This document shows, piece by piece, positions 27,466-39,309 of a stretch of 64,000 nucleotides of DNA. Each line of letters starts with the position of its first letter. Within the stretch, counting starts at the first letter, position 1. This stretch comes from Bacteroidales bacterium. Lineage in GTDB: Bacteria > Bacteroidota > Bacteroidia > Bacteroidales > UBA7960. Below the pieces are notes generated by a model. It was not told the DNA's origin and did no database searches. It saw only the letters and a program-made list of their open reading frames with translations. The position numbers and the translations under genes are program-made. Where the stretch lies: assembly GCA_007129945.1 (NCBI GenBank), contig SKUN01000087.1, positions 21,985-85,984 on the forward strand, given 5' to 3'.

Positions 27466-27534
27466 ATGGCACTTCATACCTGCACATATTATATCAGCTA
27501 TTATTACTTTTTTGTCAAACACAAAAGGGGCTGA
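27466..27534 (+). promoter_or_regulatory. Tyr/Phe-rich leader peptide ORF (MALHTCTYYISYYYFFVKHKRG*)
   Basis: 5 Tyr and 2 Phe codons lie within 9 codons (27487-27513). It is followed by a terminator directly abutting pheA. Confidence 0.65.
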
Positions 27535-27575
27535 TACGACTATGTGCTGAAAAAATAATATATAATTTCAACCTG

Positions 27576-27604
27576 AGCCCCGCCAATAGCGGGGCTTTTT
27601 TTTT
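27576..27604 (+). terminator. Attenuator terminator upstream of pheA
   Basis: AGCCCCGC-CAATA-GCGGGGCT followed by a 9-T run ending 3 nt before the pheA ATG. Confidence 0.8.
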
Positions 27605-27607
27605 ATC

Positions 27608-33294: not shown

Positions 33295-33314
33295 AGCCCA
33301 AAACCAGGGCGACT

Positions 33315-33413
33315 GGCGATCGTCCACATAGCAATGAACAAGCCAGGAGGCAGGGCACCGGCGATCGTCCAAATAGCAATGAACAAGCCAGGAGGCAGGG
33401 CACCGGCGATCAT
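33315..33413. repeat. Locus R2: 45-bp tandem repeat, 2.2 copies, between aroA and aroC
   Basis: GGCGATCGTCCA(C/A)ATAGCAATGAACAAGCCAGGAGGCAGGGCACC starts at 33315 and 33360, with a partial copy at 33405. Confidence 0.9.
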
Positions 33414-33456: not shown

Positions 33457-34440
33457 ATGAACAGCTTTGGCCGCCTATTCAGGACACATCTGTTTGGAGA
33501 ATCTCACGGATCCTCCATTGGCATAACAATTGACGGGTGCCCGCCGGGTATTGCCCTGTCGGAAGATGACTTCGGGGAAGACCTTGGTCGCCGCAAACCC
33601 GTTGCCAAAGGCACCACTCCGCGAAAAGAAGAAGACAAGCCTGAAATTTTATCCGGAATTTTTAACGGATATACCACGGGTGCTCCGCTGACCATCGTTT
33701 TTGCCAACAAAAATGTGCGTTCGGCCGACTACAGCCACCTGACCGACAAGCCCCGGCCGGGGCACGCAGACCTTGTTGCAAATAAACGTTTTCTCGGATT
33801 CAATGATCCCCGGGGCGGCGGGCATTTTTCAGGAAGACTTACCCTGGCACTGGTGGCAGCCGGCGTGGTGGCAAAAAAATTACTGACCGGGATTACACTG
33901 TCTGCAAAACTCATTGAAGCAGGCGGAAGACCGGATATTGAACCGGCGGTCAATGAAGCACTTGAAGAAGGAGACAGCATTGGCGGTTTGATCGAGTGCC
34001 GTGCACAACATATTCCCCTGGGTTGGGGCGAGCCGTTTTTCGATTCGGTGGAATCGGTCATCAGCCACCTGGCCTTCGCCGTGCCGGCGGTCAAAGGGAT
34101 TGAGTTCGGTTCTGGATTTGCCGCGGCGGCCATGAAGGGCAGCACGCACAATGACCCCATCACCAGCAAATCCGGCAAAACAGCAACCAATAATGCAGGA
34201 GGGATCACCGGCGGGCTGACCAACGGCAATGAACTGGTTTTCCGTATTGCCATCAAACCCGCCTCAAGCATCGGGAAGCCCCAAAAGACACTGAACCTGA
34301 AAACCAACAAGGAGGATATTCTGGAGGTCAAAGGTCGTCATGATGCCTGTATCGCCCTGCGGGCGCCTGTAGTCATTGAAGCCATCACAGCCTTGGCCCT
34401 GGCGGATTTCAGCCTGATGACAAAAGCCGTATGCATTTAG
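33457..34440 (+). CDS. aroC: Chorismate synthase
   Basis: MNSFGRLFRTHLFGESHG...RPGHAD...GGGHFSGR motifs. 327 aa. Confidence 0.92.
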   Translation: MNSFGRLFRTHLFGESHGSSIGITIDGCPPGIALSEDDFGEDLGRRKPVAKGTTPRKEEDKPEILSGIFNGYTTGAPLTIVFANKNVRSADYSHLTDKPRPGHADLVANKRFLGFNDPRGGGHFSGRLTLALVAAGVVAKKLLTGITLSAKLIEAGGRPDIEPAVNEALEEGDSIGGLIECRAQHIPLGWGEPFFDSVESVISHLAFAVPAVKGIEFGSGFAAAAMKGSTHNDPITSKSGKTATNNAGGITGGLTNGNELVFRIAIKPASSIGKPQKTLNLKTNKEDILEVKGRHDACIALRAPVVIEAITALALADFSLMTKAVCI

Positions 34441-34591
34441 TTGCCGGCCCTGAAGTCAGGCCGCAGCCCCCCATATGGCTATGCACGCCAATATAGTTAT
34501 GCACGAGGGTGTCCCACCCGCTAACCCGGCCCCGTAATTAGCCTGCCTGATGAACAATGCATAAAAATTTTTGTTTTGTTTAAAATACCAT

Positions 34592-34599
34592 TACATTTG
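34592..34599 (+). promoter_or_regulatory. Candidate -7 box TACATTTG (with TTTG at 34570-34573) for the his leader
   Basis: Perfect TAnnTTTG with a -33-like TTTG 18 nt upstream. The leader ATG is 20 nt downstream. Confidence 0.5.
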
Positions 34600-34619
34600 C
34601 CAACGCTAAAAGATAAACA

Positions 34620-34676
34620 ATGATTTATTCAATCCACCATATGCACCATCATACAACCCCCCGCAAAGGGTGTTGA
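34620..34676 (+). promoter_or_regulatory. His-rich leader peptide ORF 1 (MIYSIHHMHHHTTPRKGC*)
   Basis: 5 His codons lie within 6 codons (34635-34652). Confidence 0.7.
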
Positions 34677-34711
34677 ACGGTGCTGTCGTGGATTTTTCAT
34701 AATTCCAATTA

Positions 34712-34750
34712 GCAGAAAGCCCCGGGAAACACCCGGGGCTTTCTGCTTTT
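34712..34750 (+). terminator. His attenuator terminator 1
   Basis: Perfect 15-bp stem GCAGAAAGCCCCGGG / CCCGGGGCTTTCTGC, loop AAACA, followed by TTTT. Confidence 0.85.
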
Positions 34751-34840
34751 ACGCCCTTATGAAAAACCACATGAACCAATAAGCCCCGAAAAAAGATTCT
34801 TCAAAAAACCAAACAGCACAGACAAAATAATCACAGCAAA

Positions 34841-34921
34841 ATGATCCTGACCCATCAAACCCATCATATACATCATCTGCGCCAGAGGCGGCGGACCGGG
34901 TCGGGTATGATAAGTAGTTAA
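34841..34921 (+). promoter_or_regulatory. His-rich leader peptide ORF 2 (MILTHQTHHIHHLRQRRRTGSGMISS*)
   Basis: 5 His codons lie within 8 codons (34853-34876). Confidence 0.6.
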
Positions 34922-34944
34922 CCATCGAATCAATAAAGACCAGC

Positions 34945-34980
34945 AAAGGGACCCGCCGCTTCAGGCAGGTCCCTTTTTTT
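34945..34980 (+). terminator. His attenuator terminator 2
   Basis: AAAGGGACC...GGTCCCTTT outer stem with an inner GCC/GGC, then 7 T. It lies 22 nt before the hisG ATG. Confidence 0.8.
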
Positions 34981-35002
34981 ATTTCACCCACAAAAAACAC
35001 AA

Positions 35003-35866
35003 ATGAAAAACGACAAATTGACAATGGCCATTCAAAAAAGTGGCCGCCTGAGTGAAGATTCAGTCAAACTGCTAAAACAATGCGGCATCCGCATCCAGAA
35101 CGGGAACAACAACCTGAAGGCCATAGCCAGCGGATTTCCCATGGAACTGATATTTCTCCGTGATGACGACATCCCTCAATATGTGGAAGACGGTGTAGCC
35201 GATGCGGGAATCCTCGGGCTCAACGAAGTGCTCGAAAAAAACAAAGACGTAGAGGTCATTCAGCCTCTGGGCTTTTCACGCTGCCGTCTTTCAGTGGCCA
35301 TTCCCCGGGCCATGGACTACCCCGGGAAGGAATTCCTGAACGGGAAGCGGATCGCCACCTCCTATCCGATTTTACTGGAAAAATTCCTGAAAGAAAACAA
35401 GCTAAACGCTGAGATACACCCCATCAGCGGATCGGTGGAGGTCACCCCGGGCCTGGGCCTGGCCGATGCCATTTTTGAGATCGTCAGCTCCGGAGGCACC
35501 CTGTTGAGCAACGGGCTGAAAGAAACAGAAACGGTACTGGAGAGTGAAGCAGTGCTGATCGCCGGGAAGAACCTTTCTGAACCGGTAAACAAACTGTTGC
35601 AACAACTGCTGTTCCGGATCCGGTCGGTACAAAAAGCCGCAAACAACAAGTATATTCTGCTGAATGCCCCGGAACAGCAGCTCGACAACATCATCTCCCT
35701 GATACCCGGCATGAAGAGCCCCACCATCATGCCGCTGGCCGAAAAAGGCTGGTATTCATTGCACTCAGTCATCAGTGAGGATGATTTCTGGGGAGTCATC
35801 GACAACCTGAAAGAAGCCGGAGCCGAGGGAATACTGGTGGTTCCCATCGAAAAAATGGTCACGTAA
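35003..35866 (+). CDS. hisG: ATP phosphoribosyltransferase (long form)
   Basis: MAIQKSGRLSEDSVKLLKQCGI..., 287 aa. An alternative start lies at 35024. Confidence 0.92.
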   Translation: MKNDKLTMAIQKSGRLSEDSVKLLKQCGIRIQNGNNNLKAIASGFPMELIFLRDDDIPQYVEDGVADAGILGLNEVLEKNKDVEVIQPLGFSRCRLSVAIPRAMDYPGKEFLNGKRIATSYPILLEKFLKENKLNAEIHPISGSVEVTPGLGLADAIFEIVSSGGTLLSNGLKETETVLESEAVLIAGKNLSEPVNKLLQQLLFRIRSVQKAANNKYILLNAPEQQLDNIISLIPGMKSPTIMPLAEKGWYSLHSVISEDDFWGVIDNLKEAGAEGILVVPIEKMVT

Positions 35867-36300
35867 GTAACATTCGACCCACCCGACCCCGTCGGGGTCG
35901 GAGTAATATGTGACCCCGTCGGGGTCAGAAAAGCAAACGTCCAGTACAAATAGCCACGAACATGAGGCCACTTGGGGGTCGGAAAAACAAACAACCAACA
36001 ACCGCTTCGCCCGTTTATCAAGCTATTGGCAGCTTTCCTGACCATGGCCAATGAGAACCAACAACTGTCGGCGCTGCGCGCCGACCAACCCATAAAACCA
36101 CATAACAATGAGCCAACGATCCAAAAACCGTCCGACCCCGAAGGGGTCACCCGTCACTAACCCCGGCCAACGATCACAGAGCCCTAAGAACCCGAAGGGG
36201 TCACCCGTCACTAACCCCGGCCAACAGCCTGATGACCCTCAGACCCCGAAGGGGTCAAACATCACTTACCCTCCGACCCCACCGGGGTCGCACATCACCA
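35867..36300. repeat. Locus R3: array of GACCCC-NNN-GGGGTC hairpins plus shared mosaic modules, between hisG and the conserved part of hisD
   Basis: Hairpins at 35883-35901, 35911-35927, 36134-36148, 36188-36202 (degenerate), 36242-36256 and 36274-36290. GTCGGCGC-TGC-GCGCCGAC at 36067-36085. An identical 35-mer occurs at 36137-36171 and 36191-36225. Confidence 0.88.
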
Positions 36301-37562
36301 TCCTCCCCAACATCACCCGCAAGGACTATGAAAAATTACTCAGCCGTCCTTCCACGGATGCTGCCGGCCGCGAGGAAAAGGTCAGCCAGATCATCCGGAA
36401 GGTAGAAGAAGGCGGAGACAAGGCCCTGCGCAAAATATGCCTGGAAATTGACGGGCATGCGCCACCGGAATTTGAGATCCCCCCCCGGGAGCTGATACAG
36501 GCCGGGAGGGATGTGGACGAGCACCTGAAAACCGCTGTAAGGCAGGCCATGACGAACATCCGGAGCTTCCATGAGGCTCAGCTGCCAAAGCCGGTAACAA
36601 TGGAAACCATGCCTGGTGTTAAATGCAGCATCCGCTACACACCTATAGAAAAGGTAGGTCTCTACATTCCCGGGGGAACAGCCCCCCTGCTTTCCACTGT
36701 ACTGATGACTGTCATACCGGCCACCATAGCCGGATGCAGTGAAATCATCGCCTGTACTCCTCCCGGGGCCTCACCGGAACTGCTCTTTACTTTAAGCCTT
36801 TTTAATATTCGCGTTTTCACTGTGGGCGGAGCCCAGGCCATTGCCGCCATGGCTTGCGGTACAGAAAGCATCCCAAAAGTGGACAAAATATTTGGTCCGG
36901 GTAATGCCTGGGTCACCAGCGCCAAGATGCAGCTGGCCGGTCGCGGGCTGGCCATTGACATGCCCGCCGGCCCGTCGGAGGTTCTGGTGATCGCCGACAG
37001 CACGGCCAACCCGGCATATATAGCTGCCGACCTGCTGTCACAGGCCGAACATGGTGCCGACAGCCAGGTGATTTTGCTGGCCGATAGCATGGACCTGATC
37101 CGCAAAACCATCACAGAAATAGACATCCAGTTAACAAGCCTTTCGCGCAGGGAAACCGCCAGCCAGGCATTGAAGTATGCCCTGGCCATCTGTGTGACAG
37201 ATATCATCCAGGCCCTGGATATCAGCAACTATTACGGACCTGAACACCTCATCCTTTCCGTAAAGGATGCCCGTTCCGTAGCAGAACAGGTTACCAATGC
37301 CGGTTCTGTTTTTTTAGGCAATTTCAGCCCTGAATCCGCCGGTGATTACGCCAGCGGCACCAACCACACTCTTCCCACCGGGGGAGCCACCAGGGCATGG
37401 AGCGGCATCACTACGGCGGCATTCATGAAAAGCATTACCACCCAAGAGATCAGCAGGGACGGATTAATGGGCCTGGCACCCACTGTGCTGCAGCTGGCCC
37501 GGGCTGAACAGCTGGACGCCCACGCCAACGCTGTTCTTCAGCGAATACAAACAGAAAAATGA
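36108..37562 (+). CDS. hisD: Histidinol dehydrogenase (start codon uncertain; the ATG-initiated ORF carries a ~55-aa repeat-encoded N-terminal extension)
   Basis: Conserved HisD sequence begins near ...KDYEKLLSRP (about 36315). The only in-frame ATG/GTG/TTG after the upstream stop at 36093-36095 is ATG 36108. Confidence 0.85.
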   Translation: MSQRSKNRPTPKGSPVTNPGQRSQSPKNPKGSPVTNPGQQPDDPQTPKGSNITYPPTPPGSHITILPNITRKDYEKLLSRPSTDAAGREEKVSQIIRKVEEGGDKALRKICLEIDGHAPPEFEIPPRELIQAGRDVDEHLKTAVRQAMTNIRSFHEAQLPKPVTMETMPGVKCSIRYTPIEKVGLYIPGGTAPLLSTVLMTVIPATIAGCSEIIACTPPGASPELLFTLSLFNIRVFTVGGAQAIAAMACGTESIPKVDKIFGPGNAWVTSAKMQLAGRGLAIDMPAGPSEVLVIADSTANPAYIAADLLSQAEHGADSQVILLADSMDLIRKTITEIDIQLTSLSRRETASQALKYALAICVTDIIQALDISNYYGPEHLILSVKDARSVAEQVTNAGSVFLGNFSPESAGDYASGTNHTLPTGGATRAWSGITTAAFMKSITTQEISRDGLMGLAPTVLQLARAEQLDAHANAVLQRIQTEK

Positions 37563-37581: not shown

Positions 37582-39309
37582 ATGCGCTTTGACCTGCAAT
37601 CATTGATCCCGGAACATATCGCGGAACTGACCCCGTATTCCTCAGCCAGAAATGAATTTGAAGGCAGCGGCTCCGTCTTTCTGGATGCCAATGAATTACC
37701 GGATGCTTTTCCCGGAATGCCTCCCGGCGTGAACCGCTACCCGGGCAAGGAACCACGGGAACTCAGAGAAAAACTCTCAGCGGTTAAAGGAGTGAATCAG
37801 GACAGTATTCTGCTGGGAAACGGCAGTGACGAGGTCATTGATATGATCATGCGTTGTTTCTGCCGGCCCGGTGAAGACCAGATCATGGTCTTTCCTCCTA
37901 CCTTTGGCATGTATGTGGTCCGGGCAAAGGTGAACAACCTGGGGGTGATACCCGTAAACCTTGATGAAAACTTCCGGATCAACCCGGAGAAGGCACTGGA
38001 AAACGCCACTCCTGCCACCAGGCTGATGTTTGTCTGTCATCCCAATAACCCGACCGGGAATGCGCAGACCAAAGAAACAATCATCCGCTTGCTTGAAAAC
38101 TTCAGTGGCATCGTGGTGGCTGATGAAGCCTACATCGACTTCTGCCCCGAAAAAAGCGTGCTTCCCATGATCAAAGATTACCCGAACCTGGTGGTACTGC
38201 AAACCTTCTCCAAAGCATTTGGACTTGCCGGAGCCCGTATCGGGGTGGCTTATGCATCACGGGAAATCATCGGGGTGATGCAGAAAGTAAGCTTTCCTTA
38301 CAACCTGGGGACCACTGCCATCCGGCTGGCTGAAGAAGCGCTCAACAGTTATGCCGTTCACAAAATGAACGTCAGACGGATCACGACCTCCCGCGATGAG
38401 CTGGCCGGCGTCTTCAGGGAGTTGCCGCTGACTGAAATGGTATACCCCTCGGACGCAAATTTTCTGTTGGTCAAAACAAGTAATGCCGACGAGATTTACA
38501 AACACCTGGCGCGGAACGGGATTATTGTCCGCAACCGAAGCAGGGAACCAGGATGCAGCGGTTGCCTGCGCATCACAGTCGGAACGGCTGAAGAAAACCG
38601 GCAACTGGTGGAGACCTGGGCTGCTTATGACCCGCAAATTTTGGAGAAAGAAGATCCAGATGCCTTTGCAACCGCAGGACCAACAAAGAATGCCGGACAA
38701 ATTAAACGGAGTGATGCAGGCAGTCAGACAAAAGTCCGTCAGGCCACCGTACGGCGGCAAACTTCTGAGACCGATATCACGCTCAGGATCAATCTGGAAG
38801 GAAGCGCTTACGCCAACATTCAAACAGGGATCCCGTTTTTTGATCACATGCTGGAACAAATTGCCCGGCACGGCATGATGGACCTGGAGTTGGATGCCAG
38901 CGGAGACCTGGAAGTAGACCCCCATCACACCATTGAAGACACGGCCATTTCGCTGGGCAGGGCGCTCCGGGAGGCCCTGGGTGATAAAAAAGGGATTGAG
39001 CGTTATGGGTTTGAGTTGCCCATGGATGAAAGCCGGGCCAGGGTGCTGGCAGATCTCGGCGGGCGCAGTTACCTGAAGTGGGATGTCCCACTTTCAGGAA
39101 GTCAGATCGGAACGGTACCTACGACCCTTTTTAAACATTTTTTCAGGTCATTTTCCGAAGCCGCTGCCTGCAACCTGCACATTGAAGCCTCCGGAGAAGA
39201 CGACCACCACATGATTGAAGCCGTATTCAAAGCTTTTGCCAGGGCCCTGAAGATGGCAATTGCCGGAAACAATACAGATGCTATGCCCTCCACCAAGGGG
39301 ATGCTGTAA
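37582..39309 (+). CDS. hisC/hisB: Fusion protein: histidinol-phosphate aminotransferase (N-terminal ~350 aa) plus imidazoleglycerol-phosphate dehydratase (C-terminal ~195 aa)
   Basis: The N-terminal part has LQTFSKAFGLAGARIG (PLP Lys). The C-terminal part has TSETDITL...FFDHML...DPHHTIEDT...GEDDHHMIEAVFKA. The linker is ILEKEDPDAFATAGPTKNAGQIKRSDAGSQTKVR. It is a single 575-aa ORF. Confidence 0.9.
   Translation: MRFDLQSLIPEHIAELTPYSSARNEFEGSGSVFLDANELPDAFPGMPPGVNRYPGKEPRELREKLSAVKGVNQDSILLGNGSDEVIDMIMRCFCRPGEDQIMVFPPTFGMYVVRAKVNNLGVIPVNLDENFRINPEKALENATPATRLMFVCHPNNPTGNAQTKETIIRLLENFSGIVVADEAYIDFCPEKSVLPMIKDYPNLVVLQTFSKAFGLAGARIGVAYASREIIGVMQKVSFPYNLGTTAIRLAEEALNSYAVHKMNVRRITTSRDELAGVFRELPLTEMVYPSDANFLLVKTSNADEIYKHLARNGIIVRNRSREPGCSGCLRITVGTAEENRQLVETWAAYDPQILEKEDPDAFATAGPTKNAGQIKRSDAGSQTKVRQATVRRQTSETDITLRINLEGSAYANIQTGIPFFDHMLEQIARHGMMDLELDASGDLEVDPHHTIEDTAISLGRALREALGDKKGIERYGFELPMDESRARVLADLGGRSYLKWDVPLSGSQIGTVPTTLFKHFFRSFSEAAACNLHIEASGEDDHHMIEAVFKAFARALKMAIAGNNTDAMPSTKGML

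Follow-up and report, generated by a model that had tools for sequence, protein, structure and literature searches.

The histidine operon of a soda-lake Bacteroidales bacterium begins with hisG, and upstream of this gene lie two consecutive units, each composed of a short His-rich open reading frame (ORF) and a terminator-like hairpin. The locus is part of a 64-kb window, the whole stretch of DNA that was analysed; all coordinates below refer to this window and to its + strand unless another locus is named. The tandem leader region is flanked by aroC (33457-34440) and hisG (35003-35866). We consider the two units, with a probability of about 0.7, to be complete ribosome-mediated attenuators that sense His-tRNA and act in series on one transcript before the his operon. 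As judged by sequence comparison, the tandem arrangement is real and conserved, and it represents a rare variant of a textbook mechanism.

Structure of the tandem leader

The earlier note on this DNA, made from the sequence alone, had proposed two His leader-peptide and terminator units before hisG; each of their elements was found where it had been placed, and both units are conserved in relatives. The candidate his promoter of the Bacteroidetes type (34570-34599) is a pattern match, with TTTG at -33, an 18-nt gap and TACATTTG at -7. It is followed by leader ORF 1, MIYSIHHMHHHTTPRKGC with a stop codon (34620-34676), which has five His in six codons (34635-34640 and 34644-34652). The ORF overlaps the putative anti-antiterminator hairpin of unit 1 (helix 1:2, 34631-34694), with the His codons in the 5' arm and GGGUGUUGAACGGUGCUGUCGUGGAU as the 3' arm. 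Further downstream it contains the 5' strand of a candidate antiterminator, GGGUGUU (34668-34674), overlapping the UGA stop codon (34674-34676). Terminator 1 (34711-34750) has 15-16 perfect pairs, the loop AAACA and a TTTT tail, with a predicted energy of -33 kcal/mol; its stem is bounded by positions 34711/34712 and 34746/34747. The spacer between the units (34751-34840, 90 nt) is poorly conserved.

Unit 2 starts with leader ORF 2, MILTHQTHHIHHLRQRRRTGSGMISS with a stop codon (34841-34921), which has five His in eight codons (34853-34855, 34862-34867 and 34871-34876). The anti-antiterminator (34854-34911) combines a long-range helix, 34854-34862 with 34903-34911, and a local hairpin, 34876-34883 with 34887-34895. 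The 5' strand of the antiterminator, GCGGCGG (34888-34894), has its partner, CCGCCGC (34953-34959), in the 5' arm of terminator 2. The latter (34945-34980), of the form AAAGGGACC-C-GCC ... GGC-A-GGTCCCTTT, consists of a hairpin with one C.A mismatch (34945-34976, -21 kcal/mol) and a T7 run (34974-34980), three T of which are inside the stem. The end of unit 2 is separated by 22 nt from the ATG of hisG (35003), which encodes ATP phosphoribosyltransferase (NCBIfam TIGR00070 and TIGR03455). With the downstream genes identified by NCBIfam, the operon reads hisG-D-C/B-H-A-F-IE.

The His density of the two leaders is exceptional. Leaders 1 and 2 alone, of the 1300 small ORFs counted on the two strands of the window, have at least five His in eight codons, and 20 shuffles produced no such ORF. 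A generic terminator scan missed both + strand hairpins, because terminator 1 has only a four-T tail and hairpin 2 contains the C.A mismatch. The minus-strand ORFs across the region (91, 58 and 57 aa), having no Pfam match, were set aside.

Conservation and origin of the units

A scan of one genome per species yielded 55 Bacteroidota hisG loci; relatives are cited below by L numbers. Nearly all of them have a single His-rich leader ORF and a terminator before hisG, hence a single His attenuator is ordinary in the Bacteroidota. The closest relatives of the window are Bacteroidales metagenome-assembled genomes (MAGs), chiefly from soda-lake sediment. The tandem set comprises the window and 12 fetched loci (13 sequences), each with both terminators, to which a pattern scan of metagenomes added two species.

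The clade containing the window is monophyletic on the HisG tree, and its HisG proteins are 76-97% identical to that of the window. Both units are present, in the same order, in 15 of the 18 clade members of known state. L008 has only unit 1, directly before hisG, and L005 and L010 have only unit 2 there. In the sister group (L014, L015, L018, L021) unit 2 alone is found. All four matches to the unit-1 pattern in the metagenome scan are followed by unit 2 and hisG.

Covariance models distinguish the units clearly. The unit 1 model, R1, scores 79-137 bits and does so on unit-1 sites only, whereas the unit 2 model, R2, scores 86-137 bits on unit-2 sites and also recognises, with 41-53 bits, the single leaders of sister groups and more distant Bacteroidales. 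The cross-scores of the two models between units (15-35 bits) are at the background level, and local alignment of the units outside the His codons is not above that of shuffles; the possibility that the units are duplicates of each other was rejected on these grounds. As they share no similarity beyond the His codons, the tandem is not a recent duplication. Since unit 2 stands alone in the sister group and R2 also scores distant leaders, we conclude from this distribution that the ancestral attenuator for His in this group was unit 2 and that unit 1 was added upstream once. This answers the question, raised in the earlier note, of whether one or two units are ancestral. Given that single-unit relatives of both kinds exist, either unit seems able to work alone.

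The leader ORFs themselves are conserved. Leader 1, with its His run and an end of the form ..P.(K/R)GC*, is kept in 16 species, where CAC/CAT changes preserve His. Leader 2 is kept in 21 species; its stop position varies, yielding peptides of 14-27 aa.

Two distant single His leaders, in L042 (2857-2981) and L047 (2859-2982), both on the + strand (e.g. MKQTIHIHHHHLLPIGKPC*), end with Cys and stop (UGU UGA). The Cys-stop is situated at the tip of the His-codon hairpin, which resembles unit 1, but they score only 23-25 bits with the model. A lineage with Cys-stop His leaders of this kind is a possible source of unit 1.

Unit 2

The unit 2 helices were scored across 19 species, with slid pairings or shuffles as controls. 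In terminator 2, 89.5% of the cells are paired (31-64% for slid pairings), and 8 of the 12 pairs show a compensatory change. The antiterminator is formed by GCGGCGG(A), 34888-34895, and (C)CCGCCGC, 34952-34959, the latter being the apical part of the 5' arm of the terminator. Its core of five pairs is 97% paired, three pairs being kept in all 19 species, and two core pairs have changed on both sides: to GGCAGA/UCUGCC in L010 and L012 and to UUGCGG/CCGCAA in L011 and L040. In the anti-antiterminator, the local hairpin is UCUGCGCC/GGCGGCGGA, and the long-range helix joins GGGUAUGAU to the His codons, which read AUCAAACCC in the window and CAUACCC in most of the relatives. Taken together, 87% of the cells are paired (30-43% for slid pairings), five pairs have a compensatory change, and both helices are independently predicted by RNAalifold.

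In the minimum free energy (MFE) structure of the nascent unit-2 RNA, calculated with a ribosome on the last His codon, the antiterminator forms in every case where region 2 is outside the footprint. The stop codon of leader 2 is just 5' of region 2 in L040 and L009, resembling the trp paradigm. The leader 2 ORF of the window extends through region 2, and here the local hairpin would re-form behind the ribosome. On this comparative evidence, unit 2 has the terminator, the antiterminator and the anti-antiterminator of a classical attenuator, each supported by covariation.

The antiterminator suggested in the earlier note was a different one, CGGGTC:GACCCG. It is paired in only 67.5% of the cells, a level not distinguishable from that of shuffles, and was rejected.

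Unit 1

The anti-antiterminator hairpin of unit 1 has an MFE-fold z-score of -7.2. In 14 species, 81% of its cells are paired, compared to 31-51% for slid pairings, and five pairs show a compensatory change. Two of its helices, the outer one and an invariant CAUC:GGUG helix, are also predicted by RNAalifold. The core of terminator 1, GCCCCGGG-AAACA-CCCGGGGC, is nearly invariant in nearly all of 16 species, and so, unusually, is its loop.

The earlier note had found no convincing antiterminator in unit 1; a candidate can now be named. The GGGUGUU strand covers the codons for Gly and Cys together with the U of the UGA stop, and the synonymous sites in it are conserved. Its partner, AACACCC (34728-34734), is formed by the terminator 1 loop and the first three bases of the 3' arm. 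The helix is paired in 94% of the cells, compared to 7-67% for slid pairings. In L013 both partners are altered (GGG-UGC-UGAUU and AAUUA-U-CCC) and, as read directly from the sequences, are still complementary. A ribosome at the stop codon would cover GGGUGUU and a ribosome stalled on the His codons would free it, which fits the attenuator logic. We regard this candidate helix, GGGUGUU:AACACCC, as the likely antiterminator of unit 1.

Folds of nascent RNA agree with this assignment. For unit 1, the folded segment began immediately downstream of a ribosome stalled at the His run and stopped at base three of the terminator 3' arm. The GGGUGUU:AACACCC helix is present in the MFE structure of 14 of the 16 species, accompanied by short inner helices onto the 5' arm. 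At -16 to -24 kcal/mol, this fold is about as stable as the core terminator.

Several observations weigh against the reading of unit 1, and of the tandem, as a working attenuator. The GGGUGUU:AACACCC helix shows no covariation, because both strands are nearly invariant, and it engages the loop and the 3' arm rather than the 5' arm of the terminator, which is unusual. Equilibrium folds with a ribosome footprint masked at each His codon, in line with the advice of the earlier note, always retain terminator 1, so the model depends on kinetics. As the decision is kinetic, such folds are uninformative and were replaced by the nascent-RNA folds made before the 3' arm exists. Further, terminator 1 has a U-tract of only 4 U in the window and an interrupted one in L052. 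One of the units has been lost in three lineages, hence the second unit is dispensable. Finally, every member of the clade is a MAG.

Some of these points would also be expected if only one unit regulated and the other were a decaying relic, a constitutive partial terminator or a stabilising hairpin: single-unit relatives exist both ways (unit 2 in L005 and L010, unit 1 in L008), the U-tail of terminator 1 is weak in the window and in L052, and covariation is absent from antiterminator 1. We nevertheless regard this explanation as unlikely, as 15 species preserve the ORF, the His run, the 1:2 hairpin and the terminator of each unit despite unalignable spacers, the His codons are preserved through synonymous changes, and pairing in both units is far above that of the slid controls. 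A relic would not retain the ATG, the His run, the stop codon and the loop at 76% HisG identity.

Promoter and spacing

Two attenuators in series require a common transcript, and the distribution of promoter motifs and spacer lengths bears on this. The strict Bacteroidetes promoter pattern occurs eight times in the window, compared to 2.1 expected, and near hisG its sole strict copy is the one upstream of leader 1. In all tandem relatives, leader 1 is preceded at a distance of 20-30 nt by a box of the form TAC(A/T)TTTG or TACTTTTA. TAnnTTTG is absent from the window spacer, both strictly and with one mismatch, and at the sequence level no strict copy was found between the units in any tandem species. 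The absence of a promoter motif between the units, seen by eye in the earlier note, therefore extends to the relatives. A scan for sigma-70 promoters gave results at the chance level and is irrelevant for the Bacteroidota.

The spacers are unalignable and differ widely in length. The distance between the T-run of terminator 1 and the ATG of leader 2 is 0-9 nt in L040, L062, L012, L009, L013 and L011, 26-35 nt in three species, 89-134 nt in five (the window, L001, L052, L006 and L007), and 293 nt in L002. Within the first group, the distance is 0 nt in L040 and L062. A distance of 0-9 nt leaves no room for a separate promoter and a 5' untranslated region between the units. The two sensor-plus-terminator units thus appear to be co-transcribed from one promoter, as had been proposed.

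In L002 (approximately 2533-2820), and also in L061, an insert of about 290 nt between the units contains three copies of a 55-nt repeat (..aaacaaccgcttcggatc.tttccatccgg.tgcag..); hence the inter-unit spacer tolerates mobile or repetitive DNA.

What can be held against a single promoter is that a non-consensus one is conceivable in the six species with spacers of 89-293 nt (the window, L001, L052, L006, L007 and L002). Unit 2 might then be transcribed on its own, and unit 1 would be a stand-alone His-responsive gene for a small RNA or a peptide acting in trans. The conserved C-terminus of leader peptide 1 (..GC*) could be seen in this light, and an attenuator product acting in trans has a precedent, rnTrpL/peTrpL of Sinorhizobium (PMC7298713). 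However, the six species with leader 2 starting 0-9 nt past the T-run and the lack of TAnnTTTG in all spacers speak against independent units. The conservation of the GC* end includes synonymous sites, and this end matches the terminator loop; both indicate a constraint at the level of RNA rather than peptide. Moreover, every copy of unit 1 found, including the four metagenomic ones, is directly upstream of unit 2 or hisG. We consider independent units very improbable.

The position of unit 1 behind the aromatic operon (pheA...aroC) suggests yet another role, that of an insulator against read-through, with the His ORF making the stop conditional. A search of the interval between the aroC stop (34440) and the his promoter (34441-34569, + strand) revealed no terminator of the hairpin-plus-T-run type. 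Transcription of the aromatic operon may therefore continue into the his leader and come under the control of the His attenuators. Either aroC or aroA is upstream in most relatives, and the aromatic operon has what looks like a Tyr/Phe leader attenuator of its own (27466-27606, see below). On the other hand, sister species with unit 2 only share the aroC-hisG synteny and lack unit 1, and the his promoter is upstream of unit 1, so that his transcripts are also subject to it. In L006 and L007, where aroA replaces aroC, unit 1 is still found with hisG and is therefore not simply the terminator of the upstream operon. Insulation as the main role of unit 1 is quite improbable in our opinion, although it is compatible with two serial attenuators and does not exclude them. 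Overall, the conservation pattern, the spacing and the synteny argue against the alternatives to serial attenuation.

Proposed mechanism

Under serial attenuation, the promoter at 34570-34599 would drive a leader of about 400 nt containing both attenuators, followed by the his genes in the order given above, from hisG to hisIE. When His-tRNA is scarce, a ribosome translating the leader would stall at the His codons, masking the 5' arm of the anti-antiterminator hairpin and freeing its 3' arm. The freed arm would pair with a part of the terminator, and termination would not occur. With ample His-tRNA, or in the absence of leader translation, the 3' arm would be sequestered, either because the hairpin re-forms or by a ribosome that has reached or passed the stop codon, and the terminator would form.

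The two units would implement this scheme differently. In unit 2, GCGGCGG(A) would pair with the apical 5' arm of the terminator, following the classical 1:2 / 2:3 / 3:4 logic. In unit 1, GGGUGUU over the UGA codon would pair with AACACCC, and the short inner helices onto the 5' arm would add to the pairing.

RNA polymerase would have to pass both terminators, and the total read-through would be the product of two probabilities. For this reason we infer a lower basal expression, a tighter off-state and a steeper response to histidine starvation than one unit would give.

A more ambitious reading, which we find doubtful, is that this is the first natural series of ribosome-mediated attenuators for the same amino acid with independent origins, possibly coupled functionally and giving a near-digital response to His-tRNA. 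In the six species where the ATG of leader 2 abuts the U-tract of terminator 1, the terminator-1 hairpin would occlude the start region of leader 2, and leader 2 would be translated only on transcripts in the antiterminator fold of unit 1. Only translated leaders would antiterminate, an untranslated leader defaulting to termination. If this holds, coupling of the units would make the response to His-tRNA charging ultrasensitive and near-digital.

Comparison with known systems

Leader-peptide attenuation is a textbook mechanism, almost always with one unit per operon. The enterobacterial hisL leader (Rfam RF00514, His_leader) resembles the window in several respects: it has an ORF with a run of His codons, a hairpin containing these codons and, immediately upstream of hisG, an intrinsic terminator that alternates with an antiterminator (in the window supported for unit 2 and a candidate for unit 1). 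It senses charged tRNA-His by ribosome stalling, as both units are predicted to do. It differs in having seven His in a row, whereas the His codons of the window are interrupted (HHxHHH and HxxHHxHH), and in being a single unit. In addition, the window has a promoter of the Bacteroidetes type and A-rich start regions without a Shine-Dalgarno sequence. The covariance search with RF00514 gave 25.7 bits for unit 1 (E = 0.13), below the gathering threshold of 49, and no match for unit 2. The Rfam search as a whole yielded only sub-threshold matches; besides His_leader on unit 1, these were the terminator-driven rimP, F6 and GcvB. By score neither unit belongs to His_leader, and both would work like hisL.

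The earlier note was not aware of any tandem leader-peptide attenuators. In this general form the statement does not hold, since the mgtCBR leader of Salmonella is known (PMC3641672). Its tandem attenuators, mgtM and mgtP, were called a singular example by Lee and Groisman in 2012 (PMC3641672); they respond to ATP and proline, have no intrinsic terminators, and act independently and additively. As in the window, two short ORFs in one leader control alternative stem-loops and elongation into the operon. Unlike mgtCBR, both units of the window carry His codons and would respond to the same signal, each has a hairpin and a U-tract, and the operon is the pathway of the cognate amino acid. The narrower statement stands: no tandem leader-peptide attenuator for the same amino acid was found in the full-text literature that was searched, which is weak evidence, as most subscription journals are outside its scope.

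Same-signal tandems are found among RNA sensors of other kinds, namely glycine riboswitches (PMC3766115) and double T-boxes, including His T-boxes in Enterococcus (PMC9413887). Tandems with the same ligand are thought to sharpen the response or to raise cooperativity (PMC3766115, PMC9413887, PMC3641672). These systems, as well as the SAM and B12 riboswitches of metE in B. clausii, resemble the window in having two complete cis-regulators serially in one 5' leader. In riboswitches and T-boxes, however, RNA senses the ligand or uncharged tRNA directly, whereas in the window the sensor would be the translating ribosome. Double T-boxes are described as products of recent duplication (PMC9413887), whereas the two units of the window are unrelated in sequence to each other.

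Single His leader-peptide elements upstream of hisG in the Bacteroidota were reportedly predicted by Vitreschak et al. in 2004. In Flavobacterium psychrophilum, structured elements and clues to leader peptides were described before hisG and other amino-acid operons, with no Rfam matches (PMC9723704). Unit 2 appears to belong to the same lineage-wide element as such single hisG leaders. The other Bacteroidota hisG loci have one unit, whereas the clade of the window has an extra and different unit between the promoter and the ancestral one.

RNA-based control of amino-acid operons in the Bacteroidota is, to our knowledge, poorly charted and not covered by the Rfam models; the present comparison documents modular gain and loss of attenuators in this phylum. 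Same-signal tandems of riboswitches and T-boxes have served as an argument that such arrangements make responses sharper and more digital. If it works as proposed, the conserved pair of unrelated ribosome-mediated attenuators described here, both for His, would extend the tandem principle to translation-coupled sensing. The natural variants in the clade (both units, unit 1 only, unit 2 only, spacers of 0-293 nt) make the predictions about steepness and dynamic range directly testable.

Aromatic operon, other leaders and neighbouring features

Upstream of the aromatic operon, at 27466-27606 (+ strand), a small ORF, MALHTCTYYISYYYFFVKHKRG, has five Tyr and two Phe in ten codons. It is followed by a hairpin, GAGCCCCGC..GCGGGGCT, with a T9 run that ends 3 nt before pheA (27608). 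The region looks like a single Tyr/Phe leader-peptide attenuator of pheA-tyrA-DAHP synthase-aroB-aroE-aroA-aroC. The leader is kept in L061 and L063 as MTQFA(S/C)T(F/Y)(F/Y)ISYYYFFVKHKRG. With this candidate and the tandem His leader, the same genome would use one attenuator for the aromatic amino acids and two for histidine. In the spacer between aroA and aroC (33312-33401, + strand), a 45-nt unit is directly duplicated with 96% identity.

A small ORF with three consecutive Trp, MNLSVQNIWWWHSVISNNWGM, followed by a hairpin and a T-run, is present in L024 (262-388, + strand) and L025 (281-407). It gives a weak match to R1 and is probably a Trp leader-peptide attenuator in a Tenuifilaceae MAG.

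Within the his operon, the 575-aa ORF at 37582-39309 (+ strand) is a fusion of HisC, the histidinol-phosphate aminotransferase (residues 11-345), with the imidazoleglycerol-phosphate dehydratase part of HisB (residues 385-575). The hisG-hisD spacer (35885-36303, + strand) contains about eight short palindromes, GACCCCG-NN-GGGGTC, with a period of 27 or 54 nt. The array is partly within the annotated 5' end of the hisD ORF (from 36108). The match to the hisD model begins only at residue 92, hence the true start of hisD is probably downstream of the annotated one, and the palindromes are probably intergenic hairpins similar to repetitive extragenic palindromes (REP-like).

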